The translations under genes were made by a program, and so were the position numbers. From the IMG/VR virus record IMGVR_UViG_3300005805_000065, positions 19,572 through 83,571 of that record: DNA of 64,000 nt; one strand, written 5' to 3'. Below, piece after piece: positions 35,831 through 50,405 of this stretch. The DNA comes from a virus. Lineage: Duplodnaviria; Caudoviricetes. The notes beneath the pieces were generated by a model. It had not been told where the DNA came from and searched no databases. It saw only the letters and a program-made list of their open reading frames with translations. Each line of letters opens with the position of its first letter. Positions within the stretch are counted from its first letter, which is position 1.

Positions 35831-36163
35831 ATGCCATTAAAGCAACAAAAAAAGACAGAGCAAAAGAAAGATTCTAAGAGTGAGCTTGAACTTACAGTTC
35901 AATCAGCAATTAATTCACCTTATAGTCTTATTATGCCGGTAGCAGATCAAACTGTTATTCACATCAAAAATCCAGTAACAAAGTTGATGTCTAAACTCAA
36001 AGTCGATTCGCAAGAATACTTTGAGCTTTTAGACACAATGGTTGGCTATGGTTTGATGGTAAAGCTTCATAAAGACTTTCAAGAAGTATTTCAGTATGCT
36101 CCGGCATATACGGAATCTTGGAATAAATACAAAGCAAAAAAAGAAACAACACCAGTAAACTAA
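35831..36163 (+). CDS. hypothetical protein
   Basis: GAGG RBS. Confidence 0.55.
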   Translation: MPLKQQKKTEQKKDSKSELELTVQSAINSPYSLIMPVADQTVIHIKNPVTKLMSKLKVDSQEYFELLDTMVGYGLMVKLHKDFQEVFQYAPAYTESWNKYKAKKETTPVN

Positions 36164-36178
36164 CAAGAGAGAGGTTAT

Positions 36179-37027
36179 ATGAAATATACATCAAAGCAAA
36201 TAGTTGAAACAGTTGGCAAAATGCTATCTATTTCTAAAGAAATGAACAAAAATGGGGTTAATTGGTCAAGTGATAGTGAGGAAGAATACGATAGATTAAG
36301 TGCAATTATAGATGAGCAAAAAACCAATCTTTCTGAGTGTACATATAAAGATTATGACATTGCTGCCTTCAATGAGTTAATTAAAACAATTGAACACAAT
36401 GGCTTAACTAACTTTAATATGAACACTTTCTTTTCAAAGATTGATCATGAAAATTATTCAGCATATTACGAGTATGTTCATGAAATACCTAGATCAGCAA
36501 TGGTAAACAATATATCAGGGGAATCGCAGCTGTTTGATAAAACAACTAATAAATTCAACTGCTCTACTATTGGCTGTGTTGCAGGATTTGCAACTGCGGT
36601 GGCAATGAACTGGGAAACTCCAAAGTGGTTAGATGGTGATGCAAGAGATTATAATAGTTACTTTGAAATAATTGCATGCAGCTATTTAAACATTCCAGTA
36701 TGGGTTGGCAGAAATATATTTTATGGCGATGAAGGTTCAGTGTGGGCTTTTGCTAAATTATATAGCCATAAGCTCGGTCATGCCTATGATCATATTAAAT
36801 TAGCTTCTGAGTACGAACATATTGATGAATATGAATTTGAAGAATACTGGGACTCAGTGGAAATTGATTTAAACTCTATCAGCTATAAAGATGCAGTTAA
36901 TTTGCTTTCTGACATAGCCGAAGGCAGGATTATCTTTGGTACTGAAATTCCTTCTGGAATGATGTTAAATCCAAATCTTGTGAGTGCGAATAAAACATAC
37001 GGTACAGCTTCAGGAGAGGTGGAATAA
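36179..37027 (+). CDS. hypothetical protein, paralogue of 34907-35830
   Basis: FNCSTIGCVAGFA...FEIIACSYLNIPV...FY...SVWA. Confidence 0.7.
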   Translation: MKYTSKQIVETVGKMLSISKEMNKNGVNWSSDSEEEYDRLSAIIDEQKTNLSECTYKDYDIAAFNELIKTIEHNGLTNFNMNTFFSKIDHENYSAYYEYVHEIPRSAMVNNISGESQLFDKTTNKFNCSTIGCVAGFATAVAMNWETPKWLDGDARDYNSYFEIIACSYLNIPVWVGRNIFYGDEGSVWAFAKLYSHKLGHAYDHIKLASEYEHIDEYEFEEYWDSVEIDLNSISYKDAVNLLSDIAEGRIIFGTEIPSGMMLNPNLVSANKTYGTASGEVE

Positions 37028-37245
37028 TGAGTAACTTAAATAAAGTAGAGCACCCATTCACAGTATCATTTAATACTACATATTTTGTAAATGGTATTGA
37101 TGAAGAAGATGCATTGGCAATAGCATCGCTTGCTGCTCTTGGTATGGATCAAAAAGTGGCGATGAATGGGGAAATTGATATAAATGAAGCTGTAATAGAA
37201 AATGGACATAATTATACAATTAACCACAATAACACAGAGGAATAG
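37027..37245 (+). CDS. hypothetical protein
   Basis: Coupled ORF. Confidence 0.55.
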   Translation: MSNLNKVEHPFTVSFNTTYFVNGIDEEDALAIASLAALGMDQKVAMNGEIDINEAVIENGHNYTINHNNTEE

Positions 37246-37254
37246 GAGATAGTT

Positions 37255-37896
37255 ATGGAAAATAAAAACAATGCAGAAACATTGCTTAAGACAGATAAAG
37301 CAATATTTTATTATGTCTGGCAAGAAATGAAAAAGCAGGGTGCAAAATCTGTTGATACATGGTTTGATGAAGAAACAGGTGAAGAAGTTCCCGGCGATGA
37401 AAACAAATACTTTGGCTGGTCATCAGATAGTAGTCACGCAGCAAGATGTGCTTTAGGATTTATTATGAATAGAGGCATTGCTGAAGACTTTGAAGTTGAA
37501 GATAAATGTGCGGCAGATGATGATGTTTTATCAACAATCATTATGTCTAATCCCGAGTGGAATTTTACATCATCTTCAGCAAAATTAGTAATGCTACTTC
37601 AATTAATTCATGATAACTATCCTATTGAATCTTGGGACAAAGCGTTTGAATTGTATCAAAAAGACTTTGATGAAAATGGTAGATTTACCGGTCTGGATGA
37701 TATTGAATATGTTTCAGATGATAGCTTAAAAGAAATTAACATTGGTGAGCGTACGATTACTTTTAATTCAGCTAGGGGTTGTTCAGTAAAAGATGCGCTT
37801 CGATATAAGTTTGAAAATTATTCTGTTAATATTAATAAAACAGAAAATGAAGTGTTGAAAGATGTAGTTCGTGAAAAACAAAGTGAGATGGTATGA
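37255..37896 (+). CDS. hypothetical protein, paralogue of 23375-23728
   Basis: YYV..EMKKQG.KS...CALGFIM; AGGAG RBS. Confidence 0.6.
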   Translation: MENKNNAETLLKTDKAIFYYVWQEMKKQGAKSVDTWFDEETGEEVPGDENKYFGWSSDSSHAARCALGFIMNRGIAEDFEVEDKCAADDDVLSTIIMSNPEWNFTSSSAKLVMLLQLIHDNYPIESWDKAFELYQKDFDENGRFTGLDDIEYVSDDSLKEINIGERTITFNSARGCSVKDALRYKFENYSVNINKTENEVLKDVVREKQSEMV

Positions 37897-38042
37897 GTGA
37901 AGAAAGTATCAAATCAATTAATATTGATAAAGTAACAGTAATGATCAATACTGACACTGATGAAATTTATGTCAGTAGATGTATTGAATGTGAAAAACTA
38001 CTGACTGCTGATGAAGCAAGTTATGGACACGACTGTGAGTAA
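37893..38042 (+). CDS. 49-aa Cys/His peptide
   Basis: CIEC...GHDCE*. Confidence 0.5.
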   Translation: MSEESIKSINIDKVTVMINTDTDEIYVSRCIECEKLLTADEASYGHDCE

Positions 38043-38589
38043 AAAAGAAATAGATTTTGAATCTATTTATAAAAAACATATTTATTACTCCGTAGATAAA
38101 GAAGAACATTGGTTGATCGATCAATTCAAAGTATTTGGTGATCCAACATTTTATGGCGCTTTATCTGAAGGGTGGACTTGTGCTGAATATTTTAGCACTG
38201 GTAATAAACATTCATATGTATGCACTATTGCTCATGATGAAACTGAGTTATCAGTAGATGTTTATTCAGATGGTGCAATGAAATATGTTCATTATAGAGA
38301 TAAATATATCATTAGAAATGCAAATGATATGTTTACATATGGATTCAATACACAGGAAGCTTTTAGTAAAGCTGTTGAAGATGAAAAACTTATTATTGAA
38401 AATAATTCGTGGTTCGATCTTTATAGCAGTTGGAATCAATGGTCTGGTGATAGTGAAGAATTTATAAGTCATGATTTATTTGATGCAATACCGAATGCAG
38501 CAGAAGTTTTAGTAAATCAGGTCAAGCATCTTTATAATATTATAGCAACAGAAAATAACAATATGACACTAAAGAAGGCATCATGGTAG
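38011..38589 (+). CDS. hypothetical protein (start uncertain)
   Basis: 192-aa ORF. Confidence 0.55.
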   Translation: MKQVMDTTVSKKEIDFESIYKKHIYYSVDKEEHWLIDQFKVFGDPTFYGALSEGWTCAEYFSTGNKHSYVCTIAHDETELSVDVYSDGAMKYVHYRDKYIIRNANDMFTYGFNTQEAFSKAVEDEKLIIENNSWFDLYSSWNQWSGDSEEFISHDLFDAIPNAAEVLVNQVKHLYNIIATENNNMTLKKASW

Positions 38590-38816
38590 ATACACACATT
38601 CCAGCTTATGTTAGAGTAAATGTTACATATAAATTTGTATATCCAACTCATGACATAACACTCAATTGGAAAGACTTAGAAGATGAGTTTCTATTAAAAA
38701 AAGTTAAAGAGATGATTCTCGAGTTTTTATTTGAAGACTTATCTTCTAATGAAGATGGAACAATTGAATGGTTTGATGATGATACAAATGAACCACTTGG
38801 CTGGGGACCGGTATGA
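38583..38816 (+). CDS. hypothetical protein
   Basis: Coupled ORF. Confidence 0.5.
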   Translation: MVDTHIPAYVRVNVTYKFVYPTHDITLNWKDLEDEFLLKKVKEMILEFLFEDLSSNEDGTIEWFDDDTNEPLGWGPV

Positions 38817-38914
38817 AAAGAAATACACAGGGTGTCTTATTTATAATTGGGGTAGCACTATACCTCGTATTTATGACAGCTTTTGTTGGATCTTGTATTG
38901 GAAGTAATTTATGA
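38813..38914 (+). CDS. 33-aa membrane peptide
   Basis: ATGA overlaps at both ends, hydrophobic helix. Confidence 0.5.
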   Translation: MKRNTQGVLFIIGVALYLVFMTAFVGSCIGSNL

Positions 38915-39060
38915 AAAGATGTTTTAAAAATGAAGAAGATTTAGTATTAGAGCTAATAAAAGCTCTCGAAGCCCAATATGATTATATGATATCCCCAGAA
39001 GATGAACAAATGTATAAAGAATGGTTAGATTGGTTAAGAAATAAATACGATAATATTTAA
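38911..39060 (+). CDS. 49-aa hypothetical protein
   Basis: ATGA overlap, fills gap. Confidence 0.5.
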   Translation: MKRCFKNEEDLVLELIKALEAQYDYMISPEDEQMYKEWLDWLRNKYDNI

Positions 39061-39069
39061 GGAGACACA

Positions 39070-39330
39070 ATGGAAATGAAATATAATGATTGGTTGGAGA
39101 AATATCAACCAATTCCACACCCGGATTCTAAAGATGGTCATATTTATTATGAAACATTTGGAGAAGATTACGAAATGGTAAAGAAAGCAAATCGTAACAA
39201 TGTTTGGACACTTGTTCAGGCTGATGAAGATTTGATCATTATTAATCATTTTGCCTGGGTAAATAGAATTAATTATTTAATAACAGAAGTTCCGTATAAT
39301 CCAGATGAACACATTGAGGTTGTAGACTAA
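39070..39330 (+). CDS. hypothetical phage protein
   Basis: YETFGED...VWTLV...WVNRINYLITE; AAGGAG RBS. Confidence 0.65.
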   Translation: MEMKYNDWLEKYQPIPHPDSKDGHIYYETFGEDYEMVKKANRNNVWTLVQADEDLIIINHFAWVNRINYLITEVPYNPDEHIEVVD

Positions 39331-39533
39331 TGAACATTAACAATACGATAAGCAAAATAAAAGAAGCAAGAAAAGATGCTCTGAAGGAAAGAAGATATGC
39401 AGAAGCTGATGGTAACTCAGATTATGCTTTTTGGGATGGTTATATCAGTGGTATGGATCAAGCAATCTTTCTTCTTGAACAAAAAGTAGAAAAGAAAAAA
39501 GCTAAGAAAGAAAACAAAAAAGAGAAAAAATAG
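39330..39533 (+). CDS. hypothetical protein
   Basis: Coupled ORF. Confidence 0.55.
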   Translation: MNINNTISKIKEARKDALKERRYAEADGNSDYAFWDGYISGMDQAIFLLEQKVEKKKAKKENKKEKK

Positions 39534-39569
39534 TACTAATATTAACTATAAATTATCACAAGGACAATA

Positions 39570-39794
39570 ATGACAAATATCGAACAATTAGAGGAGAAAT
39601 TAAATTATGTTCACTGCGTTTTTCAAGAGCTGGAAACTATGGCTATTAATCTTCCTATCGGGGATTATAACCTTTGCTATAGTTATTTGGAGGAGGCTCG
39701 AGAATACATTAGATTACTTATTGAACAAAGAAGACGAGAGAATCCTGAAGGATATACTTTCATCACAAAAGAAGGATTTGTAACATGGGAATAA
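39570..39794 (+). CDS. hypothetical protein
   Basis: AAGGA RBS. Confidence 0.55.
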   Translation: MTNIEQLEEKLNYVHCVFQELETMAINLPIGDYNLCYSYLEEAREYIRLLIEQRRRENPEGYTFITKEGFVTWE

Positions 39795-40042
39795 AAGAAT
39801 TTGATATGCCCGGAGGTGGCAAAATTATACGATTACTAAGCCCGGAACTAGAGAAAAAGATGGCTGAAAAGGAAAAGTATTATACTGTTTCTTTCTCAGA
39901 TGATTATGCAACCCTACAAACAACGGTGGCTGCATTTGATGAAGATGAGGCAATTGATAAAGCAATTGAACAGATATCGGATTACTATGATCTTGATATA
40001 ACTACATGGAAATGTGATGATGTGGAGGAAACAAATGGGTAA
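39785..40042 (+). CDS. hypothetical protein
   Basis: AFDEDEAIDKA motif, shared with next gene and 37027-37245. Confidence 0.55.
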   Translation: MGIKEFDMPGGGKIIRLLSPELEKKMAEKEKYYTVSFSDDYATLQTTVAAFDEDEAIDKAIEQISDYYDLDITTWKCDDVEETNG

Positions 40043-40335: not shown

Positions 40336-40359
40336 ATAAAGGATTGTATCTTCAGTTAA

Positions 40360-40413
40360 GGTATACGCTACCAAATGGGTATACGTAACCAAATGGGTAT
40401 ACGCTACCAAATA
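40360..40413. repeat. three tandem 18-bp repeats GGTATACG(CT/TA)ACCAAAT(G/A)
   Basis: Units start at 40360, 40378, 40396. Confidence 0.92.
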
Positions 40414-40468
40414 GTAAGAGACGAGAGCTCAACTCTCAACATAAATATTAAAATAGATGGGAGTACAT

Positions 40469-40484
40469 TGTTCCACGTGGAACA
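40469..40484. promoter_or_regulatory. parS-consensus palindrome TGTTCCACGTGGAACA
   Basis: Perfect 16-bp palindrome matching the widespread bacterial parS consensus tGTTtCAcGTGaAACa family. Confidence 0.8.
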
Positions 40485-40557
40485 TTCCCAGCTAAAAGCA
40501 AAGGAATATGCTTAAATATAGGCATATTCCCAAAAAAATTTGTCTAAAATGGCATAT

Positions 40558-40645
40558 AAAAATAAATAAAAATAGGTAAAAACATAGTAAAAAGTGGTAA
40601 AAAGTGGGGAAAAGTAGGGAAAAATGGGGCAAAAGATAGTAAAAA
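40558..40645. repeat. nine helically phased A4-5 tracts (intrinsically curved DNA)
   Basis: Tract starts 40558, 40568, 40578, 40589, 40599, 40610, 40620, 40631, 40641; mean period 10.4 bp. Confidence 0.85.
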
Positions 40646-40683
40646 GTGTGCGATTGTGAAATGCTCATATCTTGAGACCCTAT

Positions 40684-40706
40684 ATTACCCCCTCTATAGG
40701 GGTAAT
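40684..40706. repeat. 8-bp inverted repeat
   Basis: ATTACCCC-CTCTATA-GGGGTAAT. Confidence 0.7.
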
Positions 40707-41203
40707 TGGCATAAATTTAAAAGAATATACTGATAGAAACAAATAAACCCCGATTTTTTCATTGCCCTTACTATCGACCTTTTAATCGAGAGAAGTCTCG
40801 AGGATTTTTAGTACAGTTCAAACGACTAATCAACCAATTTTAATATGCAGAGAAAGCCGGATTGATTACAACGTTGTTATTACCGACTTTATAATGTCGG
40901 GGTAGATCAATGGATCTATATCGTCTTTGGTATAGGAATAAATAGAGCCGACTACCCAGCCATTGGCACACAAGGGTGGTCCCTAAAAAAAATTTGCCTG
41001 CATCCGCATAGGCAAAACTAAATACAATTTGAAACAGATATGTAGATATATAGTTATGATTAGGAATATAGATTAAAGTAAAGGAAAAAAGAAATAAAAA
41101 TAAATTGGTGTACAAATAAGAATACATTCTTATTCGGAACACCAACTCAAAGGTTTAGTTTGAAAATATGTAATCAAGTTAGGTAAATACAAATGCAAAA
41201 CAA

Positions 41204-41241
41204 TTGGTGGTCAAGCAGCGCTTAGCTGCTAAGACCACCAA
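41204..41241 (-). other. inverted-orientation TANNC hairpin (module R1)
   Basis: Minus strand TTGGTGGTC-TTA-GCAGC-TAAGC-GCTGC-TT-GACCACCAA. Confidence 0.85.
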
Positions 41242-41247
41242 CGAAAA

Positions 41248-41271
41248 TGCGTGCGCCTTTCGGCGCACGCA
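41248..41271 (-). terminator. intrinsic terminator of cassette 9
   Basis: TGCGTGCGCC-GAAA-GGCGCACGCA-TTTT on minus strand. Confidence 0.85.
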
Positions 41272-41297
41272 CTCCGTGTGAACGGCATTGCCATTGG

Positions 41298-41579
41298 TTA
41301 TTTGGCTAGCGAAACCACACACTCACCGTCAGTAGTCCATTGAATGGACACTTCCAATGAGTGCTGGCTTGCCATTGAAACAACACGATTGCGCACTTTG
41401 TTTTTGTGTGCAATGTAGTTGTCGTCTTCGGGATTGCCTTGTCCGGCTTCGTAGATGAATGCGTCATCTTCTACGCCAGCGTCAAGTGCGAGCAGTTCGG
41501 CTTCCAGGATTGGGTCCTGGAATGCGTCACGACCACGCTTGACTAGTCGGGATTGGATATCGCTCAGGTTCACTTTCAT
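41298..41579 (-). CDS. cassette protein, paralogue family copy 3
   Basis: MKVNLSDIQSRLVKRGRDA...SIQWTTDGECVVS. Confidence 0.85.
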   Translation of the reverse strand: MKVNLSDIQSRLVKRGRDAFQDPILEAELLALDAGVEDDAFIYEAGQGNPEDDNYIAHKNKVRNRVVSMASQHSLEVSIQWTTDGECVVSLAK

Positions 41580-41626
41580 AGTGCGCCTGCCTTTCTTTGT
41601 GATTGGGCAACCCGTTCACGAAGAAC

Positions 41627-41658
41627 ACACTACCTAGACATTGAGAATGTGTATTCAA
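41627..41658 (-). promoter_or_regulatory. cassette promoter (TTGAAT-20-TAGTGT)
   Basis: Member of nine-copy motif. Confidence 0.75.
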
Positions 41659-41685
41659 CAGACTATGCCTATGCATCTAGTGAAC

Positions 41686-41722
41686 GGGCGTGCAACGCAG
41701 CTAGGCGCTGGCTCGCACTCCC
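41686..41722 (+). other. TANNC hairpin (loop TAGGC)
   Basis: GGGCGTGC...CAGC-TAGGC-GCTG...GCACTCCC. Confidence 0.8.
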
Positions 41723-41781
41723 GCCAGGTAAAAGAATTAGAAAATGTATATTAAAAGTGAGACACATAGCGATCCCTAAAG

Positions 41782-41821
41782 GCTGGCGGTCAAGCAGCGT
41801 ATAGCTGCTAAGAACGCCAGC
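41782..41821 (-). other. inverted-orientation TANNC hairpin (module R2)
   Basis: GCTGGCG/CGCCAGC outer stem, GCAGC/GCTGC inner stem, loop TATAC on minus strand. Confidence 0.85.
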
Positions 41822-41827
41822 GAGAAA

Positions 41828-41852
41828 CGCCCCGCCCTTGCGGGGCGGGGCG
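41828..41852 (-). terminator. terminator of cassette 8
   Basis: GC stem with GCAA loop, then TTTCTC on minus strand. Confidence 0.75.
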
Positions 41853-41868
41853 CTCTCACTTGCGGGGA

Positions 41869-42171
41869 TTACTTGCGAAACGAAACGACCATTTCGCCAG
41901 CGTCAGTCCATTGGACGCTGATTTCCACCTCGTCCCCGAGGTGGCGAGTGGCGAGGGAGTTGACACGATTCCGCCAAGTGTTCTTGTGGTTCGTGTACTC
42001 CTCGTTGGTGCTGACGCACTCACCCTCGAATGTCGCCTCCTCGAAGAGGAATGCGTCATCAGGGGTGCTCGGGTCAAGGGCGAGCAATTCCGCTACGAGT
42101 TCAGGGTTCTCGTATGCGTCACGCCCACGCTTGACCAAGCGGGACTGAATCTGTTTCAGGTTGACCTTCAT
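41869..42171 (-). CDS. cassette protein, paralogue family copy 2
   Basis: AAGGAG RBS; MKVNLKQIQSRLVKRGRDA...SVQWTDAGEMVVS. Confidence 0.85.
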   Translation of the reverse strand: MKVNLKQIQSRLVKRGRDAYENPELVAELLALDPSTPDDAFLFEEATFEGECVSTNEEYTNHKNTWRNRVNSLATRHLGDEVEISVQWTDAGEMVVSFRK

Positions 42172-42226
42172 TTCATTTCTCCTTGTTGCGAGGTGATAGG
42201 GAATTGCGTCCTCGTCAACACTCAAC

Positions 42227-42258
42227 ACACTAACTAGGTAATGAGAATGTGTACTCAA
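42227..42258 (-). promoter_or_regulatory. cassette promoter (TTGAGT-20-TAGTGT)
   Basis: Member of nine-copy motif. Confidence 0.75.
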
Positions 42259-42283
42259 CTAACTATGTCTATGGCAACGCAAC

Positions 42284-42325
42284 GCCGGTCGTGCAATGTA
42301 GCTATGCGCTACTATGCCCGCCCGC
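42284..42325 (+). other. TANNC hairpin (loop TATGC)
   Basis: Inner stem TAGC/GCTA. Confidence 0.75.
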
Positions 42326-42383
42326 CGGGGTAAGGTAATTAGAAAATGTGTATTAAAGAGAATGTGAAAGCGATCTCACTGCG

Positions 42384-42422
42384 GCTGGCGGTCAAGAGCG
42401 AATAGCTCGACAGAACGCCAGC
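42384..42422 (-). other. inverted-orientation TANNC hairpin (module R3)
   Basis: GCTGGCG/CGCCAGC outer, GAGC/GCTC inner, loop TATTC on minus strand. Confidence 0.8.
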
Positions 42423-42428
42423 GAGAAA

Positions 42429-42454
42429 CGCCCCGACCCTTTCGGGTCGGGGCG
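42429..42454 (-). terminator. terminator of cassette 7
   Basis: CGCCCCGACCC-GAAA-GGGTCGGGGCG-TTTCTC. Confidence 0.8.
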
Positions 42455-42477
42455 CTTTCGGGGAGTAGGCGTGGTGG

Positions 42478-42774
42478 TTACGCCTTGTATGACACCACCA
42501 TCTCGCCATCCACTGTCCACTGGATGGAGAGTGAGCCATCGGGGATACCGATGCTCGATGCGACCGACTTGACACGGTTGCGCCACAAGTTCTTGTGGTT
42601 CACGTACTCGTCGCTGTCGGTGTCACCTGCGAACGTCGCTTCCTCAAAGAGGAAGGCATCGTCGTTCTCAGGGCTGAGCGCAGTCAGTTCTGCGCTCAAC
42701 TGCTCGTTCTCGTAGGCATCACGCCCACGCTTCACGAGCCTGCTTTGGATGTCTTTCAGGTTTACCTTTGCCAT
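42478..42774 (-). CDS. cassette protein, paralogue family copy 1
   Basis: AAAGGAG RBS; MAKVNLKDIQSRLVKRGRDA...SIQWTVDGEMVVS. Confidence 0.85.
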   Translation of the reverse strand: MAKVNLKDIQSRLVKRGRDAYENEQLSAELTALSPENDDAFLFEEATFAGDTDSDEYVNHKNLWRNRVKSVASSIGIPDGSLSIQWTVDGEMVVSYKA

Positions 42775-42826
42775 TGGGATGGCTCCTTTATGGGTGTCGC
42801 ACGATACCTTCGTGCTGACATCCATC

Positions 42827-42858
42827 ACACTACTTAGGCATTGAGAAAGTGTATTCAA
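42827..42858 (-). promoter_or_regulatory. cassette promoter (TTGAAT-20-TAGTGT)
   Basis: Member of nine-copy motif. Confidence 0.75.
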
Positions 42859-42884
42859 CTTAGTATGCGTATGCTACGAGAGAA

Positions 42885-42923
42885 CTGGCGTGCAAGCGGA
42901 GCTAAGCGCTCCTCGCCCACCAG
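42885..42923 (+). other. TANNC hairpin (loop TAAGC)
   Basis: Inner stem GGAGC/GCTCC. Confidence 0.8.
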
Positions 42924-42942
42924 CCGCAAGACAAAAAGAAAA

Positions 42943-42966
42943 GGGGTGAGCCTTTCGGCTCACCCC
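42943..42966 (-). terminator. terminator of cassette 6
   Basis: GGGGTGAGCC-GAAA-GGCTCACCCC + T-tract. Confidence 0.9.
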
Positions 42967-42973
42967 AGGTCTT

Positions 42974-43288
42974 TCACCTACGCCTGCGCTCTCGTTGGAG
43001 CCTGCGTATGGCTGGTTTGGTGTTGTCGAGGTAGATACCCCATTCAGTACCTTCTCGACGGTATCGCACGGCGTAGTCGCGAACCCTCACACACTTGCTG
43101 TCCTTGCGTGCCAACACGTGCTTTGCCGTGGTGAACACTTTGGTGAACATCACGGCTGTCTCGCTGTCCGAGACAGTCAGAAGTTTCACCATTGTGGGAC
43201 GACGCTTGAGCCTGAGCACTCCGAACGCCTTTCGGAGCCGAGCGAGAGCCCAGTATCCGTATTCGTCTGCCAATGTCATTGTTGCCAT
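42974..43288 (-). CDS. basic cassette protein
   Basis: Between motif promoter and terminator; ends RRLQRERRRR. Confidence 0.75.
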   Translation of the reverse strand: MATMTLADEYGYWALARLRKAFGVLRLKRRPTMVKLLTVSDSETAVMFTKVFTTAKHVLARKDSKCVRVRDYAVRYRREGTEWGIYLDNTKPAIRRLQRERRRR

Positions 43289-43338
43289 TGTTGCCTTTCT
43301 CGCAACCGTTGTCTGAACGGTTGCCGTTGTTGATTAGT

Positions 43339-43370
43339 ACACTAACTAGGCATTGAGAATGTGTACTCAA
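43339..43370 (-). promoter_or_regulatory. cassette promoter (TTGAGT-20-TAGTGT)
   Basis: Member of nine-copy motif. Confidence 0.75.
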
Positions 43371-43396
43371 CTATGGAGAGTGTATCTACCGTGTGT

Positions 43397-43437
43397 GCGG
43401 GCGTGCAACCTAGCTAAGCGCTCGATCGCCCACCCGC
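43397..43437 (+). other. TANNC hairpin (loop TAAGC)
   Basis: GCGGGCG...AGC-TAAGC-GCT...CACCCGC. Confidence 0.75.
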
Positions 43438-43454
43438 CCTAAGACAAAAAAAGA

Positions 43455-43480
43455 GGGCGAGGGGCTTGCGCCCCTCGCCC
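43455..43480 (-). terminator. terminator of cassette 5
   Basis: GGGCGAGGGGC-GCAA-GCCCCTCGCCC + T-tract. Confidence 0.9.
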
Positions 43481-43486
43481 GACTTC

Positions 43487-43729
43487 TTATTCCTCTTCGG
43501 CTTCCATTGCGTCAGCCATTACCTGCCAGCACTCAGCGCCGATTCCTGAGATGAGAACCTCACGGTCGTCGAGGCTCAGGAATGGGAGAGCGTCCTGAAT
43601 CAGGTACTCTCCACTCTGCCATTGGGAGAGCCCGACCATTGTTGCGATGAACAACTCGTCGGGGACAGTCACCGTGTGGTTAGCACCACAGATGACGCAC
43701 TCCTTGTTGTTGGTGATTGTTGCGGACAT
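43487..43729 (-). CDS. cassette protein, putative Zn-binding (CxxC...IQDALPFLS...ISG...C)
   Basis: GAAGGGAAAG RBS; CVIC and ECW motifs. Confidence 0.75.
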   Translation of the reverse strand: MSATITNNKECVICGANHTVTVPDELFIATMVGLSQWQSGEYLIQDALPFLSLDDREVLISGIGAECWQVMADAMEAEEE

Positions 43730-43779
43730 TGCTTTCCCTTCCGCAGTTGGTATCGGACCAACTGCTGTTGTTGAGAAGA

Positions 43780-43811
43780 ACACTACATAGGCATTGAGAA
43801 TGTGTACTCAA
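43780..43811 (-). promoter_or_regulatory. cassette promoter (TTGAGT-20-TAGTGT)
   Basis: Member of nine-copy motif. Confidence 0.75.
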
Positions 43812-43837
43812 CTATGGAGACTGTGTGTATCGTGTGA

Positions 43838-43877
43838 GTGGGCGTTCGCGAAGCTAGGCGCTTAGCCGCCCGCCCAC
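43838..43877 (+). other. TANNC hairpin (loop TAGGC)
   Basis: GTGGGCG/CGCCCAC outer, AAGC/GCTT inner. Confidence 0.8.
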
Positions 43878-43894
43878 CAAAGACAAAAAAAGAG

Positions 43895-43922
43895 GGGAGC
43901 CGAGGCTTTCGCCTCGGCTCCC
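43895..43922 (-). terminator. terminator of cassette 4
   Basis: GGGAGCCGAGGC-GAAA-GCCTCGGCTCCC + T-tract. Confidence 0.9.
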
Positions 43923-43950
43923 ACTCCGTCAGGGCAAGCGTCGGATTGGA

Positions 43951-44286
43951 CTAGCGCCGAGCGAGGCGCAAGGCACGAAGTACCTTGCGAACCCTCGCCT
44001 TGCGCTTATTGCGCTTGCGTGTGCGACGAGCCTTGCGCTTCGTCGCCTCGCTCCACGGCTTGCGCTTGCGCTTGGGCTTGGCGATGTGCCTCACCTGCGC
44101 CTTGGCGCGAGCCTTGGGGCTGGCAACGACCGCTGGGGTCGTCGGGGCGATGACCGTCGCCTGCGGTGCTGGCGCAGTTGCCTGCGCTGGCTTGACTACC
44201 ACCGCTGGCTTGACTGCCTGCGCTGGCTGTGTCTGCCCTGCGAGAAGTGCTCCTCGCAAGGCTGGGTGCTTGCCTGACTTAGCCAT
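43951..44286 (-). CDS. Ala/Pro-rich protein with very basic (K/R) C-terminal half
   Basis: AGGAGG RBS; KPKRKRKPWSEATKRKARRTRKRNKRKARVRK. Confidence 0.75.
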   Translation of the reverse strand: MAKSGKHPALRGALLAGQTQPAQAVKPAVVVKPAQATAPAPQATVIAPTTPAVVASPKARAKAQVRHIAKPKRKRKPWSEATKRKARRTRKRNKRKARVRKVLRALRLARR

Positions 44287-44327
44287 GATGTACCTCCTGG
44301 CTTGTTGGGCTTGCCCTGACACCAACT

Positions 44328-44359
44328 ACCTTACCTAGGCATTGAGAATGTGTACTCAA
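44328..44359 (-). promoter_or_regulatory. cassette promoter (TTGAGT-20-TAAGGT)
   Basis: Member of nine-copy motif. Confidence 0.75.
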
Positions 44360-44385
44360 CTAACAACGAGACAGACATCGTGAGA

Positions 44386-44426
44386 GTGGGCGTACAGCGC
44401 AGCTAAGCGCTGATCCGCACGCCCAC
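44386..44426 (+). other. TANNC hairpin (loop TAAGC)
   Basis: GTGGGCGT/ACGCCCAC outer, CAGC/GCTG inner. Confidence 0.85.
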
Positions 44427-44443
44427 CAGAACACAAAAAGAAA

Positions 44444-44467
44444 GGGGAGGGGCTTTCGCCCCTCCCC
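44444..44467 (-). terminator. terminator of cassette 3
   Basis: GGGGAGGGGC-GAAA-GCCCCTCCCC + T-tract. Confidence 0.9.
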
Positions 44468-44481
44468 AACTTTCCAGCAGT

Positions 44482-44739
44482 CTAAAGACCACTGAACATG
44501 CGCCGTACGGCTTGCTCAAACCGAACGGCTGACCGATACTCAAGCAAGTCCTGATAGATGAACGGACGCTCCGAGCCGAGCATTATGACCTGCTGGACTG
44601 GCTCCATTGACCCATCGGGGTTGATGAGTTTCACGATGAGAGATGTTGCATCCAACGGAGCATTCTCTCGCACCGAGTACGGAAGCGCGATGCCATTACC
44701 AGCATCGAACTCGATTACATTGCCGAAGTAGTACTGCAT
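44482..44739 (-). CDS. cassette protein, hypothetical (85 aa)
   Basis: AAAGGAGG RBS before MQYYFG. Confidence 0.75.
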   Translation of the reverse strand: MQYYFGNVIEFDAGNGIALPYSVRENAPLDATSLIVKLINPDGSMEPVQQVIMLGSERPFIYQDLLEYRSAVRFEQAVRRMFSGL

Positions 44740-44791
44740 GGCAGTACCTCCTTTGCGACTACTTTTGTTTCGTCGCTTGTTGATACCTATT

Positions 44792-44823
44792 ACCTTACCT
44801 AGTGATTGGAAATGTGTACTCAA
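44792..44823 (-). promoter_or_regulatory. cassette promoter (TTGAGT-20-TAAGGT)
   Basis: Member of nine-copy motif. Confidence 0.75.
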
Positions 44824-44850
44824 CAAGTGGAACCGTAGCCATCGAGAGAA

Positions 44851-44890
44851 ATGGTGTTCAGCGCAGCTAAGCGCTGACTCAGTACACCAT
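44851..44890 (+). other. TANNC hairpin (loop TAAGC)
   Basis: ATGGTGT/ACACCAT outer, CAGC/GCTG inner. Confidence 0.8.
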
Positions 44891-44908
44891 CCGAAAGACA
44901 AAAAAGAG

Positions 44909-44947
44909 TGGGGCGCACACACTCGGGGGGTGAGTGTGTGCGCCCCA
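44909..44947 (-). terminator. terminator of cassette 2 (16-bp perfect stem)
   Basis: TGGGGCGCACACACTC/GAGTGTGTGCGCCCCA + T-tract on minus strand. Confidence 0.85.
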
Positions 44948-45001
44948 TTATCTCTTGTTCACCTTGCCTCCCTGTGGCTGGTGGTGGGTGGGATACGGCT
45001 A

Positions 45002-45103
45002 CTACTTGCGGTTGCGCAGGTAGCCGATGATTACAACAGCGCTGAACACGGCAACGGTGATACCGTAGCCGAGATACTCGCTGATGCTGATGGTGATGTC
45101 CAT
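45002..45103 (-). CDS. 33-aa single-pass membrane peptide (cassette 2)
   Basis: AAGGAGG RBS; MDITISISEYLGYGITVAVFSAVVIIGYLRNRK*. Confidence 0.75.
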   Translation of the reverse strand: MDITISISEYLGYGITVAVFSAVVIIGYLRNRK

Positions 45104-45124
45104 CTGTGTACCTCCTTGCCAACC

Positions 45125-45156
45125 ACCTTACCTAGGTATTGGAAATGTGTACTCAA
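45125..45156 (-). promoter_or_regulatory. cassette promoter (TTGAGT-20-TAAGGT)
   Basis: Member of nine-copy motif. Confidence 0.75.
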
Positions 45157-45183
45157 CAAGCGATGTGTACCGTACCGATAGAA

Positions 45184-45222
45184 AGGGCGTGCGAGTCATC
45201 TAGACGATGCATAGCCCGCCCT
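45184..45222 (+). other. TANNC hairpin (loop TAGAC)
   Basis: AGGGCG/CGCCCT outer, CATC/GATG inner. Confidence 0.8.
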
Positions 45223-45240
45223 CCAAAACTCAAAAAGAAA

Positions 45241-45266
45241 GGGGTGGAGGCTTGCGCCTCCACCCC
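45241..45266 (-). terminator. terminator of cassette 1
   Basis: GGGGTGGAGGC-GCAA-GCCTCCACCCC + T-tract. Confidence 0.9.
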
Positions 45267-45272
45267 GATTCC

Positions 45273-45539
45273 TTATTGCTGGACGGTCTGAACCAAGCCA
45301 GCCATCTGGCGAAGCCTATCGACCTCACCTGCTCGGACTTGCGCCCTTGCGTCGTTCGCCTCAACAACTGCCTCAGTCATCTTCAGGACGAGCGAGAGCA
45401 GGTTGCCGATGTGGTGGACGAAGTGAACCATCTGGCTGTCGGGCATTCCGACAACTGCGATGAAGTCGTCCTTGCCGAGCGAGTTCAGGATTGCTTGCGC
45501 CTCCTGCACTCGTTCTGGTGGTGTGAGTGACGTGGACAT
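45273..45539 (-). CDS. cassette protein, hypothetical (88 aa)
   Basis: GAAAGGGG RBS before MSTSLTPP. Confidence 0.75.
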   Translation of the reverse strand: MSTSLTPPERVQEAQAILNSLGKDDFIAVVGMPDSQMVHFVHHIGNLLSLVLKMTEAVVEANDARAQVRAGEVDRLRQMAGLVQTVQQ

Positions 45540-45592
45540 TGCGTTCCCCTTTCGTGGGAGTGTCGCACGAACCGTTCGTGCTGACATCTTCT

Positions 45593-45624
45593 ACTATACC
45601 TAGGCATTGGAAAAGTGTACTCAA
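45593..45624 (-). promoter_or_regulatory. cassette promoter (TTGAGT-20-TATAGT)
   Basis: Member of nine-copy motif. Confidence 0.75.
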
Positions 45625-45650
45625 CTGTTACATTAGCCCTGCCCAACCTT

Positions 45651-45691
45651 GCTGGTGTTCTAATTAGCTACGACGCTACTAGAACACCAGC
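45651..45691 (+). other. array-terminal hairpin (loop TACGAC)
   Basis: GCTGGTGTTCTA/TAGAACACCAGC 12-bp outer, TAGC/GCTA inner. Confidence 0.8.
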
Positions 45692-46028
45692 ATGTGAATT
45701 GACCGGGGGAGACAGACCAAATGGATCGATGTCTAAAATGTTAAGTAACAATGTAAAAATATATACTCAAATTTTTCACAGAATCGGGCGGGAAGAAAAA
45801 TGTCTCCACACATGAGAAACGCACCGAGCGAGAAAGCCCGATGCGCTCTCACCTATAACGGTCCCAAGCAAACGAGTTGCCAGTTACAGTATAAGTTGCG
45901 GGGTATAAAGTAAATAGTTATCTTCGTAAGGTATATAACAAAATAATTTATGCACATATGGTTTGAAAAAAATCGGGGGTTTAAGGATTTTCTCCAGATG
46001 TCGCAGACATTGTGTGTATAATGTCTAT

Positions 46029-46256
46029 ATGAACTTCCAAGAGTGGCTTGAATTGGGTATAAAAAACAATTGGTGCGGTCCTGCTGTGTGCTATACACAC
46101 GATGGAATGCCGGTATCGAAAGAAGAAGACGAGGAATTCGAGCGTGGCGAGGATCCGTGCATGCATGTTTTGCGGTTGTATGAAGATGTCGATATGAAAA
46201 ACAGCGTGGAAGAGTTCCATTCGCCTTCCGTATGGCGCAATTTACGGCACGATTAA
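46029..46256 (+). CDS. hypothetical phage protein
   Basis: MNFQEWL...WCGPAVCYTHDG...DPCMHVLRLY. Confidence 0.65.
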   Translation: MNFQEWLELGIKNNWCGPAVCYTHDGMPVSKEEDEEFERGEDPCMHVLRLYEDVDMKNSVEEFHSPSVWRNLRHD

Positions 46257-46372: not shown

Positions 46373-46966
46373 CTACGGGATCTGCTTTACGCCCTGTCGA
46401 AAGTTAATATTTAGGGCAAAACGGAAGGGATATTGCACCGGATTGCTGCCGGCGTGAAGCTGGGATCCATCAAACAGCACCCCCCGCCCCATTCTTGGCT
46501 CCACAGCGTCTGTAAGCTCGTATTTTTCGTTAAAGAAGTAAGTTGGACCATCTGAGTCGTTTATGTAATATAGAAAAACCTGGTGCGGGACCTTTCTTCC
46601 GTCATCATAAGCCATGTCTGTATGGGCAACCTGGGGCTGATATCTGTTATATCCGGGGTATGGGAAGGTAACATTGACTTTTACCCGAAATAAAGTGATT
46701 TCACCAAGCCAATTTTGTAACATATCAAAGATTGGTCGAATAATTTTAAGATGTGGGGAGGAATTCTCTTCGCCGTGCATGTACATAAAGTGAGTAAGCT
46801 GCTGCGGAGCGTGAACTTTGTCTTTTAACAGACTGTTTTCATCAAAAATGTGGGTTGGATAGATTCTGTAGGGCATTTTATTACTGCTTACATACTCATA
46901 GAGCTCTTTTTGCTCTTCTGGGGTAATAAAATTATTAACAACTTGCATTACTTCTCCCAATACCAC
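46373..46966 (-). CDS. 2OG-Fe(II) oxygenase-like protein
   Basis: HTD...LYYINDSDGPT...FDGSQLHAG...RFALN (HxD...H...R). Confidence 0.8.
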   Translation of the reverse strand: MVLGEVMQVVNNFITPEEQKELYEYVSSNKMPYRIYPTHIFDENSLLKDKVHAPQQLTHFMYMHGEENSSPHLKIIRPIFDMLQNWLGEITLFRVKVNVTFPYPGYNRYQPQVAHTDMAYDDGRKVPHQVFLYYINDSDGPTYFFNEKYELTDAVEPRMGRGVLFDGSQLHAGSNPVQYPFRFALNINFRQGVKQIP

Positions 46967-47667
46967 CGATTTGCACTTTCTTGATCATAAAAAGACTTTG
47001 GAGGCTCGCCCTCTGATGGCTTAGTGCTTTCATCTTGATTATTAACACCATAATCATACCTGTTATCATCTGATGTTATCCACTTCTCGCCATCTTCAAC
47101 ATCCCAAATTGTTTCATTAACCAATCTCTCAATAAGATTTTGACCTTTCTTTGAGGTATATGCGGGATCCCATAATCTAATTCTATTATTTGGCTGAATA
47201 GCATAGTTGCCATCTTCTCTTTGAATTACATGACCACATTTATGCTGCCCTGGATTTGTCGAATAACCAGTATTAATAAGATTACTATCTGGCTGATGCC
47301 AATCTAAGGTAAACATATACTTACCATTTACTGAATTATTATGTCTATCTCTATAAGTCATTGCTCGACCGCGCATGTGTTCAAAAATTGTAACACTGAT
47401 GTGAGATGAAAAGCTGTTCCACATCACAAGGTCGTATAGATCTACTTCAGGAGCGTCTGGGGAGGCACAGAAGGCATTTATAGGCGCTCTCCACCAAATC
47501 CCGCCATCTTCCATTAGAAAATGAAATACCGGTGCTCTATCGGGGATGGAGGCTACGCCAAAGATTACGCACGGAAATTTTAATTCGTGACTATCTATTT
47601 GATTGCGAAGAAAATTTCCACGCACATAACACTCAATTGGTGGAATAGAAGCGTTAAGCTCAGGCAT
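46948..47667 (-). CDS. hypothetical phage protein
   Basis: 239-aa ORF, coupled. Confidence 0.65.
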   Translation of the reverse strand: MPELNASIPPIECYVRGNFLRNQIDSHELKFPCVIFGVASIPDRAPVFHFLMEDGGIWWRAPINAFCASPDAPEVDLYDLVMWNSFSSHISVTIFEHMRGRAMTYRDRHNNSVNGKYMFTLDWHQPDSNLINTGYSTNPGQHKCGHVIQREDGNYAIQPNNRIRLWDPAYTSKKGQNLIERLVNETIWDVEDGEKWITSDDNRYDYGVNNQDESTKPSEGEPPKSFYDQESANRWYWEK

Positions 47668-48280: not shown

Positions 48281-48877
48281 TTAACCAATCAATGTTTTTA
48301 ATGCGTACTTTACAATGCCATAATTTGGTTTATCACTATTTGAACTGAGGAGTATGTAATTATCTTTTAGTAGGTCATCAATCTTACGCCGATTCTTTTC
48401 TGAATGGTATTCAATAAGATACACTGCTGGGTTGTGCTTGTAGGATTGTAAAATTTCTATTTCAGAACCTTCGGTATCAATTTTCATAATATGACATGCC
48501 GGTAATTCAGATGCTGTTATTACATCAACTTCTTCTCCATTATAAGTTTGCTGATTACCTCTATACAAACTAGCTTCGCCAATATTATTTTTACCATAAA
48601 ATATTTTTTGTTTTCCATCATTTGCACTAACTGCAACATTAAACAATTGCACATTTTTCATATCAGCAGTATTCTGTTTTAAAATTTCAAAATTTGATTT
48701 AACTGGTTCAAAGCAAACAATTTGACTGTTCGCCCATCTTGCGTTTGCCCATCTTGCAAATGCTCCAATATTTGCACCCACATCAAAAATTACAGGACTT
48801 TCTGATGCAAATGGAACTTCATATTCTCCGGCAAAAATTTTTTGAATATGACCAAGCATATTTTCTGGAATGTGCAT
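48281..48877 (-). CDS. FkbM-family methyltransferase
   Basis: IFDVGANIG, CFEP, MKIDTEGSE. Confidence 0.88.
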   Translation of the reverse strand: MHIPENMLGHIQKIFAGEYEVPFASESPVIFDVGANIGAFARWANARWANSQIVCFEPVKSNFEILKQNTADMKNVQLFNVAVSANDGKQKIFYGKNNIGEASLYRGNQQTYNGEEVDVITASELPACHIMKIDTEGSEIEILQSYKHNPAVYLIEYHSEKNRRKIDDLLKDNYILLSSNSDKPNYGIVKYALKTLIG

Positions 48878-49411: not shown

Positions 49412-49794
49412 TAATATACACCGTCTATTATTTCAAAACCGTGCTCTCTATCAAAGACTATATACTGATATTCAATCATATCAAAAAACTTTTGTATTTC
49501 ATTTAAAACAACTGGGACATTTAATTCAGAACATGTGTAAAGATCAAACTGCAGCAACCCCGGTGACTGCTCATCCCAAACATGAAATGCAATGTGCGAA
49601 GTTTCAATCATTACTGTAGCAGTTGTACCACGATTCCCTGGCGCTTCTACATATGAAACAAATGGACCTCGAATAATTTTCATATTAATTTTTGCAACAA
49701 GGTGCTTTAACCAGTTGTATGTTATTTCACTATCAGTAGGTGGTCTATGACAGTGACCTCTGAGTAATAAATGTTTATGTATTGGCTTTTTCAT
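49411..49794 (-). CDS. speD: S-adenosylmethionine decarboxylase (prokaryotic type proenzyme)
   Basis: MIETSHIAFHVWDE pyruvoyl self-cleavage motif, FDLYTC. Confidence 0.85.
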   Translation of the reverse strand: MKKPIHKHLLLRGHCHRPPTDSEITYNWLKHLVAKINMKIIRGPFVSYVEAPGNRGTTATVMIETSHIAFHVWDEQSPGLLQFDLYTCSELNVPVVLNEIQKFFDMIEYQYIVFDREHGFEIIDGVY

Positions 49795-50392: not shown

Positions 50393-50405
50393 TGGGAGCA
50401 ACATA

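Follow-up and report, generated by a model that had tools for sequence, protein, structure and literature searches.

Island of nine single-gene units

We analyzed a stretch of viral DNA, 64,000 nucleotides (nt) long and referred to as the window, which comprises bases 19572-83571 of the 83.6-kb IMG/VR record IMGVR_UViG_3300005805_000065. The record is classed as linear and ~80% complete. The subject of this study is an island at window positions 41158-45691, made up of nine single-gene units (cassettes) on the minus strand that share one module of ~135 base pairs (bp). The units follow a common plan: in order, a GC-rich terminator, a ~41-nt hairpin, a 26-nt spacer, a promoter-like box and a small open reading frame (ORF). 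Each ORF has a Shine-Dalgarno-like (SD-like) motif, and the coding share of the island is only 53%.

A GC-rich stem-loop lies 3' of every ORF. In eight of the nine cases its loop is GAAA or GCAA (GNRA type), while the loop after cassette 2 has 7 nt. A scan for canonical intrinsic terminators recognized six of the nine stem-loops; those following cassettes 7-9 have weak T-tracts (TTTCTCGC, TTTTCGTT). The leaders of six cassettes (1, 3, 5, 6, 7 and 8) fold into a stem-loop as well, and the folding is strong in cassettes 1, 5, 6 and 7 (z about -3.4; z -3.6 for cassette 1). The products of cassettes 7-9 are paralogues sharing 58-64% identity (family F1), whereas the remaining products are unrelated to one another.

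To describe the hairpin, the spacer and the promoter jointly we used a covariance model (CM), R1, with 116 positions and 16 pairs. Its scores are given below together with the coordinates, all on the minus strand. Cassette 1 (45241-45691; 67.9 bits) has the hairpin at 45651-45691, the box through the -10 element at 45593-45624, an ORF of 88 amino acids (aa) at 45273-45539 (family F6) and a GCAA-loop terminator at 45241-45266. In cassette 2 (44909-45223; 94.9 bits) the hairpin at 45183-45223 and the promoter at 45125-45156 precede an ORF of 33 aa (45002-45103, F4) and the terminator with the 7-nt loop (44909-44947). Cassette 3 (44444-44891; 83.1 bits) consists of a hairpin (44850-44891), a promoter (44792-44823), an 85-aa ORF (44482-44739, F5) and a GAAA-loop terminator (44444-44467). 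The top score, 102.4 bits, belongs to cassette 4 (43895-44426), where the hairpin occupies 44386-44426, the promoter 44328-44359, the 111-aa ORF 43951-44286 (F2) and the terminator 43895-43922 (GAAA). For cassette 5 (43455-43877; 91.2 bits) the respective positions are 43838-43877, 43780-43811, 43487-43729 (80 aa, F3) and 43455-43480 (GCAA), and for cassette 6 (42943-43437; 98.1 bits) they are 43397-43437, 43339-43370, 42974-43288 (104 aa, F14) and 42943-42966 (GAAA).

The three F1 paralogues come last, each followed by a terminator-like stem-loop. Cassette 7 (42429-42924; 96.0 bits) includes a hairpin at 42884-42924, a promoter at 42827-42858, a 98-aa ORF at 42478-42774 (paralogue a) and a stem-loop at 42429-42455 (GAAA, weak T-tract). 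Cassette 8 (41828-42325; 85.6 bits) has its hairpin at 42285-42325, promoter at 42227-42258, 100-aa ORF at 41869-42171 (paralogue b) and stem-loop at 41828-41853 (GCAA). The same elements of cassette 9 (41248-41724; 98.2 bits) are found at 41684-41724, 41627-41658, 41298-41579 (93 aa, paralogue c) and 41248-41272 (GAAA).

After each F1 gene there is also a gene-less module on the same strand, in which the hairpin apex is flipped and the box has decayed to AT-rich sequence, with the 26-27-nt spacing retained. The module after cassette 7 (42329-42421) comprises a hairpin at 42385-42421, a 27-nt spacer and a box remnant at 42329-42357, and has no CM match at E<=0.01. The one after cassette 8 (41727-41820) has its hairpin at 41783-41820, a 27-nt spacer and a box remnant at 41727-41755. 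The terminal module (41152-41241; hairpin 41204-41241, 26-nt spacer, box remnant 41152-41177) closes the array. At its apex the usual AGCGCTTAGCT appears in exact reverse complement, and the module is a tenth, degenerate motif without an ORF. Weak CM matches occupy this position, after the last F1 gene, in two related contigs (L115 and L122) as well.

At the other end, the island is joined to the backbone by a conserved, AT-richer, non-coding junction (45692-45960, minus strand). Its motifs CTTGGGACCGTTATAG ... GAAAAATTTGAGTATATA are common to relatives with differing islands. The same two blocks also occur in L106 (10960-11140) and L118 (13590-13750), and GAAAAATTTGAGTATATA contains TTGAGT, like the island box. 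The junction may serve as the region's entry promoter or represent a small RNA; a comparison with Rfam gave no match for 45692-45960. Over the island itself, Rfam at E<=1 produced only sub-threshold matches to terminator-like small RNA models and no family for the hairpin.

This layout had been proposed previously from the window sequence. All nine cassettes on one module are located as claimed in that original prediction, and both the GAAA or GCAA loop in eight of nine terminators and the hairpin with its ~26-bp spacer before every promoter were borne out. It had also described genes of 33-111 aa that are mostly unrelated. The sizes stand and the last three genes are paralogues, but the start of cassette 1 had to be corrected to 45539 (88 aa).

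Distribution of the module and its cargo in related phages

The gene flanking the island (46948-47667) has more than 598 relatives in IMG/VR. Using R1 we searched 1.19 Mb of sequence, covering the window, the relatives' loci and the metagenome contigs, and obtained 94 matches, all on the array strand. Nine are in the window and 49 are in six related IMG/VR phage contigs (12 in L115, 10 in L122, 7 in L125, 8 in L126, 8 in L121 and 4 in L112). The other 36 are in ten freshwater metagenome contigs. Because the other ~72 relatives' loci have no R1 match, the module marks a sub-clade of related phages.

The ten metagenome contigs were detected by an exact-pattern scan; they are short, carry 2-4 copies each and are 75-88% identical to parts of the island. 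The same kind of scan of IMG/VR gave two matches that we judged to be due to chance, one in a coding region of a 29% GC contig and the other in a 42% GC contig without the module. Similarly, the 21 single-copy matches to the exact pattern in 185,579 species genomes were scattered over assorted phyla, had no second copy within 4 mismatches and were treated as chance.

To define cargo families, the ORFs behind each promoter were clustered (own ORF calls, blastp E<=1e-4) and the result was corrected with tblastn. This yielded ~34 families in ~75 cassettes, most of them seen once. The order of families is F6-F4-F5-F2-F3-F14-F1-F1-F1 in the window and F4-F5-F2-F3, directly after the junction, in L016. 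Other short contigs read F17-F5-F2-F11 (L065), F2-F11-F12 (L060), F2-F3-F12-F18 (L084), F3'-F16 (L048), F34-F7-F8-F1-F1 (L012) and F7-F8-F10-F1-F1 (L032). The longer islands are F5-F4-F2-F19-F20-F21-F22-F10-F1-F1-F1 in L115, F23-F24-F13-F25-F3 followed by four F1 genes in L122, and F26-F13-F27-F3-F1-F28-F29-F1 in L126. Thus, F4 and F5 are reordered, F5 preceding F4 in L115 and following it in the window. The F1 array is at the distal end in all islands.

Sister lineages (L106, L107, L113, L117, L118, L120 and L124) have GC-enriched islands at the same locus (after ~10700), with other genes and a different 12-bp palindrome, TGTAAnnTTACA. Each of these lineages contains 4-7 exact copies of the 12-mer, which is absent from the window genome. 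One gene of the sister-lineage islands encodes a Lys-rich protein of ~160 aa, and in L118 a hairpin of the island type with an AGCTAGC apex stands beside a TGTAAnnTTACA-type motif.

Probable exchange of units at shared modules

We mapped four differences between near-identical contigs. Three are one-cassette indels with chimeric modules and the fourth is a replacement. L012 and L032 (97% identical) differ by exactly the 488-bp F10 unit. The single module of L012 corresponds to the upstream L032 module through the hairpin and to the downstream L032 module from the promoter on, which places the crossover in the hairpin-promoter spacer. For the F34 unit, extra in L012 relative to L032, the crossover is in the 5' arm of the hairpin. 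The F6 unit is present in the window and L059 but missing from L016, where the first module combines a hairpin of the junction type with the F4 promoter and the crossover falls within the box. The replacement distinguishes L084, which has F3, from L060, which has F11. The two contigs are 94-97% identical on either side of the replaced segment, and the segment extends from just after the promoter to the next terminator/hairpin. F11 stands in place of F3 (the cassette 5 family) in both L060 and L065.

Since the three crossover positions differ and each lies within uninterrupted homology, the exchange of units fits general homologous recombination between modules and not the action of a site-specific enzyme. 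Neither tyrosine nor serine recombinases (PF00589, PF00239) were matched in the 83.6-kb, ~80% complete record, in a search that detected the positive controls. The record does encode a RecA homologue (window positions 8790-9704, plus strand; PF00154 76.7 bits, RecA_C 37.9 bits), possibly the driver of recombination between modules.

We consider it probable (roughly 0.7) that the island is a hyperplastic region where autonomous expression units for single genes stand in tandem and are shuffled by ordinary recombination at the shared modules, in the manner of the promoter-early stem-loops (PeSLs) of T4-type phages. Each unit would be autonomous owing to its own promoter-like box, short leader (often with a 5' stem-loop), SD motif, small ORF and strong stem-loop terminator. 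Every gene is flanked by near-identical ~135-bp modules in direct orientation, between which homologous recombination could delete, insert, replace and reorder whole units while leaving the expression of the neighbours intact. Possibly with the help of the phage RecA, such recombination would take place inside a single genome as well as between relatives infecting the same cell.

Here too the earlier claims can be compared with the data. The analogy to PeSLs proved apt, as all four differences have their ends within the module, which is left chimeric in three cases. Shuffling is supported by the covariance-model scan, in which the 94 copies represent the same module with different genes and orders. 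The reported absence of an integrase and presence of RecA agree with our profile searches. The idea that the module is the unit of recombination or assembly holds in that exchanges end inside it, but no dedicated assembly mechanism has to be invoked, homologous recombination being enough. Junctions at a fixed point of the module were not found, the three indel crossovers falling in the hairpin arm, the spacer and the promoter.

Promoter-like box

The box TTGARTACACWTTYYCAAT has nine minus-strand matches in the island compared with 0.03 expected from dinucleotide shuffles, and no further copy was found in the whole 83.6-kb record. An alignment of 29 modules from three genomes shows that TTGA together with the T, the A and the last T of TAnnnT are invariant, while the inner bases of the -10 element vary. 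The conserved block, TTGARTACAY, is 10 nt and thus longer than a -35 hexamer. In every copy of every aligned genome the -10 element (T-A-n-n-n-T) follows 20 nt after TTGAGT. A scan for consensus sigma-70 promoters with 16-18-nt spacing detected none of the nine boxes. The invariant TA...T appears to be the signature of a sigma-70-family -10 element.

Our search of the record for phage polymerases and sigma factors found no sigma region 2, no T7-type RNA polymerase and no phrog_4291 two-barrel polymerase. For this reason, we read the boxes as putative promoters for the host sigma-A RNA polymerase, possibly assisted by a helper factor. N4-type hairpin promoters and T7-type phage-polymerase promoters were considered and dropped, as no such polymerase was found and TA...T fits the sigma-70-family -10. 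A TTGAG-N8-CTCAA dyad was likewise dropped as a conserved operator; it is specific to the window genome and is not kept in L115, L122, L126 or L121. The same dyad enters the comparison with MerR-type promoters, which have a dyad operator within a spacer of 19-20 bp and a MerR-family activator encoded nearby. All copies studied here have a 20-nt spacer, and the dyad is peculiar to the window genome.

Over 32 nt, promoters are more alike within a genome (identity 0.75-0.84) than between genomes (0.42-0.68), and the 16-nt spacer has a flavour peculiar to each genome. Two explanations fit this likeness: homogenisation by recombination among copies, or co-evolution with a genome-specific factor. 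Two WhiB genes were detected in the record (77.9 and 43.5 bits), one at window positions 26756-26965 (plus strand) and one at the window start (record positions 19504-19680). The WhiB family is typical of Actinobacteria and their phages, and in Actinobacteria WhiB proteins bind the principal sigma factor. The two genes are candidates for the factor that might read the promoters with the 20-nt spacer.

Hairpin upstream of the promoter

Upstream of every promoter there is a ~41-nt hairpin, the 3' end of which is 26 nt from the box. Its covariation was tested on the three-genome alignment of 29 copies with a hand-set structure of 16 pairs. A five-genome alignment (MAFFT with RNAalifold) gave 5 pairs only and misaligned the apex; the three-genome alignment was used instead. 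Pairing is possible in 82.4% of the cells, compared with 70.5% in shuffles and 30-43% with the partner slid. As many as 11 of the 16 pairs have changes on both sides, and the number of compensatory cells is 54 against 17.2 expected. A G-A mismatch is conserved in 21 of the 29 copies and the apex is conserved as GC-N-YTA-GC. In addition, ~20 cells are G-U on the sense strand, corresponding to C-A on the opposite strand. The pairing counts and the sense-strand G-U cells indicate that the pairing is under selection on the coding-sense strand, in the form either of read-through RNA or of DNA that is extruded or single-stranded.

The spacer between hairpin and promoter keeps its length across genomes despite sequence drift, and does so even in the gene-less modules. 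This fixed distance argues for a coupling to the promoter at the DNA level, a hint that our analysis does not reconcile with the hint from sense-strand pairing. The hairpin might serve as an additional terminator lacking a U-tract, as a place where read-through transcripts are processed by an RNase III-type enzyme, as a supercoil-buffering cruciform between strongly transcribed units or as a factor-binding site.

Weighing the proposed recombining array

A number of points weigh against an array of autonomous units shuffled by recombination. The relatives bearing the indels are short (1-3 kb) metagenome contigs from mixed populations, in which assembly could join strains and gain cannot be read apart from loss. 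The gene families depend on our own ORF calls and the blastp threshold mentioned above. Much of the region appears to have been inherited vertically, because a loose backbone order (F4/F5, then F2, F3 and the F1 array) is conserved. Recombination at repeats may itself be an unselected by-product of conserved regulatory DNA. Early, monocistronic transcription, with its starts and stops, is a prediction from the anatomy. Moreover, the gap of 20 nt exceeds the 16-18 nt of sigma-70-type promoters; an extra factor may be required, or the 10-nt box may be no -35 element at all. Finally, recombination does not account for the covariation of the hairpin, for the conservation of its apex or for the constant distance that separates it from the promoter.

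It might be argued that the island is just a co-regulated gene set, in which a factor (a WhiB-sigma-A complex or a spacer-correcting MerR-like activator) reads box and hairpin, and that the differences in cassettes are incidental to evolvability. The invariant 20-nt spacer, the box exceeding a -35 hexamer and the strict 26-27-nt hairpin-promoter distance even in gene-less modules would all follow naturally, and the genome-specific spacer flavours could track a co-evolving factor, the phage having two WhiB genes. This explanation does not conflict with the evidence for recombination, however, and only disputes its significance. Moreover, no regulator was identified (a MerR gene was not searched for) and the nine island products gave no match to DNA-binding families. 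We regard co-regulation as the whole explanation as unlikely.

A related idea concerns the hairpin alone. It may be a new promoter-coupled element of the sense strand and no spare terminator, read by a factor such as a WhiB-sigma-A complex and insulating, activating or marking for recombination each unit. We put this forward tentatively, as a conjecture that is rather doubtful at present.

Base composition and alternative origins of the island

The island has a GC content of 55% and a GC content at third codon positions (GC3) of 0.68, compared with ~35% and a median GC3 of 0.29 for the backbone. One could see here foreign DNA, either acquired recently from a phage or host of higher GC content or representing a small parasitic element that has kept the composition and signals of its donor. 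The offset of 20 GC points, the absence of the promoter box elsewhere in the record and the fact that the ORFs are ORFans all speak in favour of such an origin. Yet the junction and the orientation are the same in relatives that are only 76-86% identical. In addition, every related island is GC-enriched over its own backbone (for example, 0.41-0.45 against 0.28 in L121 and 0.51-0.62 against 0.32 in L115), which makes the offset old and maintained rather than recent. The island is also devoid of replication, integration and packaging genes, and a nucleotide search against 50,697 phage records in both near and distant modes gave no match. Finally, the only clearly GC3-rich gene outside the island in the window is that of the major capsid protein (61217-62248; GC3 0.55), pointing to an expression-linked composition. 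In this phage and its host, GC-rich codons may thus accompany high expression, and the composition would result from selection rather than from foreign origin. Other candidate causes of the offset are GC-biased gene conversion in a recombination hotspot and avoidance of the AT-seeking silencers of Actinobacteria. Taken together, a foreign origin seems very unlikely.

Another alternative is a dedicated platform for cassette capture, a phage analogue of the integron, in which the hairpin would be a folded attC-like site and a specific enzyme would excise cassettes at a fixed point. The resemblance is real in part. As in integrons, single small genes stand in a row, parted by imperfect hairpin-forming repeats, and the cassette content varies between relatives. 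The hairpin between every pair of genes covaries strongly, with a conserved mismatch and apex; its G-U pairs favour the folding of one strand, and the inverted apex in the gene-less modules suggests a directional site. In contrast to integrons, however, the array is without an integrase, no tyrosine or serine recombinase having been detected in the ~80% complete record. Each cassette has its own promoter and terminator instead of a common Pc promoter. The exchange points vary within ~100 bp of homology instead of coinciding with a fixed attC core: the three indels crossed over at three places, each in unbroken homology, and there is no GTTRRRY-type core at the base of the stem. With three defining features failing, the array does not appear to be an integron analogue, and we consider the capture platform highly improbable.

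The weakest alternative is that assembly went wrong, yielding a chimeric contig or, because of the repeats, a false order of cassettes. This is hardly credible. The record is indeed metagenome-assembled, and repeats spaced ~500 bp apart have fragmented related assemblies into 1-3-kb contigs. However, the upstream junction and a number of cassette adjacencies recur at 75-88% identity in independent assemblies of other samples, six longer IMG/VR contigs have the same architecture inside phage backbones, and the module copies of the window are ~60-85% identical, leaving no long exact repeats to mislead an assembler. In particular, L059, which comes from another metagenome, spans the upstream junction into the backbone (aligning across 45033-46111), and L016 shares the junction hairpin. 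Because independent assemblies span this junction, the island is not a chimera.

Comparison with known systems

PeSLs of T4-type phages, described for RB49/phi1, T4/PST and KVP40/nt-1, are composite units of a terminator and an early promoter in hyperplastic regions; indels leave chimeric units behind, the crossover point varies, and mini-circles are excised (Arbiol et al. 2010, PMC2839356; Comeau et al. 2014, PMC4122927). The island resembles them in having ~100-135-bp terminator-plus-promoter units repeated among small ORFans, so that each gene has its own start and stop signals. Furthermore, in both systems the units delimit indels and replacements, one chimeric unit remains where a gene is missing, and crossovers occur at varying points. 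The PeSL features that can be read from sequence all appear to be present except for the consensus sigma-70 geometry, the promoter here having a 20-nt spacer and no sigma-70 consensus.

There are further differences. The island has an additional hairpin, which covaries, keeps its apex and stands at a constant 26 nt before the promoter, and the GC content of the island is 20 points above that of the genome. It shows no sequence similarity to PeSLs and lies in a phage related to Streptomyces siphoviruses of the cluster BE type, not in the context of a T4-like myovirus. Because the nearest cultured relatives are the Streptomyces phages Braelyn, NootNoot and Paradiddles of this type (capsid 52% and DnaE 37% identical), the relation to PeSLs is one of analogy, and descent from T4 PeSLs is excluded.

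The host-takeover genes of SPO1, as summarised in PMC6873191 from Stewart et al. (1998), are grouped in operons within the terminal redundancy, and both their early expression and their shut-off of host functions have been demonstrated. As far as that summary goes, the likeness is one of layout only: a compact cluster of small genes that lies away from the replication and structural modules, has strong ribosome-binding and promoter-like signals of its own and codes mostly for products without a known family. The difference is that every gene of the window island forms its own unit, whereas the SPO1 genes are in operons.

The phage DSL-LC01 (OQ999401; PMC10611076), a metagenome-assembled phage of Actinomycetia, offers another parallel. 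It is a freshwater actinophage with a row of small genes of unknown function, at least 16 of which are preceded by one repeated dyad-flanked promoter motif, and one gene is a homologue of cassette 5. However, this motif is an extended -10, TGTTATAAT, inside GATTCTA...TAGAATC, without an upstream hairpin, and many of the genes have no individual terminators. In the region 29694-39873 (L186) we observed at least 16 copies of GATTCTAAAGATGTTATAATAGAATC before small hypothetical genes and a conserved ACGACGAAAGGAC leader after the motif. We found no published analysis of these repeats. The DSL-LC01 array is a second repeated-promoter array, of another kind, in a freshwater actinophage.

Cargo proteins

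Searches of Pfam and PHROGs with the nine products gave no informative match, the sole match being phrog_20898 (function unknown) for cassette 5 (4e-07). F1 alone among the families occurs in all islands; its features are an alpha/beta core and an invariant KRGR motif. The AlphaFold2 model of the cassette 8 product is a confident one, with a predicted local distance difference test (pLDDT) score of 89.7. Foldseek found no match for this model in the PDB at E<=0.001 (all E>=0.2), and the best VIA-align Z of 5.5 is within the range of common arrangements; accordingly, no fold was assigned. The family is rare, with 57 clusters in a profile search of 1.84 billion representative proteins. In the ESM Atlas it matched unnamed viral clusters at 0.85-0.86, below the lead threshold. 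Neither tblastn against phage records nor a protein search for related loci in IMG/VR returned a match to F1. No informative fused domain was found in longer proteins with the F1 domain; one protein of 380 aa has an RNase_T exonuclease and pentapeptide repeats, with a weak F1 match (E 9e-4).

The other families are characterized by their sequence features and occurrence. F2 (cassette 4), found in seven relatives, is Ala/Pro-rich with a very basic tail: about half of the C-terminal 45 residues are Lys/Arg, and the length among relatives is 101-111 aa. The gene of cassette 4 (43951-44286, minus strand) contains three 18-nt tandem repeats in the Ala/Pro-rich part (44168-44228), and the tail of its product resembles a histone tail or a nucleic-acid-coating peptide. 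F3 (cassette 5) is a small Cys-rich protein (CxxC...ECW); its DSL-LC01 homologue is 44% identical and stands under the different repeated promoter of that phage. The 33-aa F4 (cassette 2) is a hydrophobic peptide, 82-91% identical in L011, L016 and L115. F6 (cassette 1) has a homologue at the same place in L059 and L011, while for F14 (cassette 6) tblastn found no match in any relative, making it specific to the window. We infer that the island genes may encode highly expressed, probably early, host-directed small proteins. The host-takeover or anti-defence role that the original prediction gave to the cargo finds no support in the Pfam and PHROG searches of the nine products.

The phage and its probable host

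The record encodes a DnaB-type helicase, a primase, a DnaE-type polymerase, RecA, ribonucleotide reductase, terminase, portal, prohead protease and the major capsid protein, as well as six tRNAs. All the related contigs are from freshwater metagenomes. Based on this source, the kinship with Streptomyces phages and the two WhiB genes, the phage is probably siphovirus-like and its host a freshwater actinobacterium.

Two other features of the window deserve mention. Genes at 12931-14040, 54266-55276, 7472-8167, 48281-48877 and 49775-50569 include several glycosyltransferases (one matching 'GT4 in conflict systems'), an FkbM methyltransferase and a DUF1599 nucleotide-modification domain; this set hints at DNA hypermodification in the phage. 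At 40340-41150, where a plus-strand block converges with the minus-strand block ending in the island, there are ~800 bp of AT-rich sequence without a convincing ORF. In the counterpart of this stretch in L115, L122 and L121 the GC content falls to ~30%. The stretch may represent an origin, the end of the genome or a region used in packaging.

Significance

The principle of shuffling genes at shared modules is already known, and the novelty here is in what sets this variant apart: its hairpin, a spacer of 20 nt and a GC-rich composition that has been maintained. The analysis extends module-mediated gene shuffling, known for T4-type myoviruses of Gram-negative bacteria, to an abundant uncultured lineage of freshwater phages with a probable actinobacterial host. 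It also provides material in the form of the 116-position module model, ~34 families of small cargo proteins and the rare core family F1. Two puzzles are raised, a sigma-70-like promoter with an invariant 20-nt spacer and a covarying hairpin locked upstream of it. If the hairpin is indeed coupled to the promoter and the +20% GC is maintained, the island would represent a specialised expression-and-exchange chassis of freshwater actinophages.

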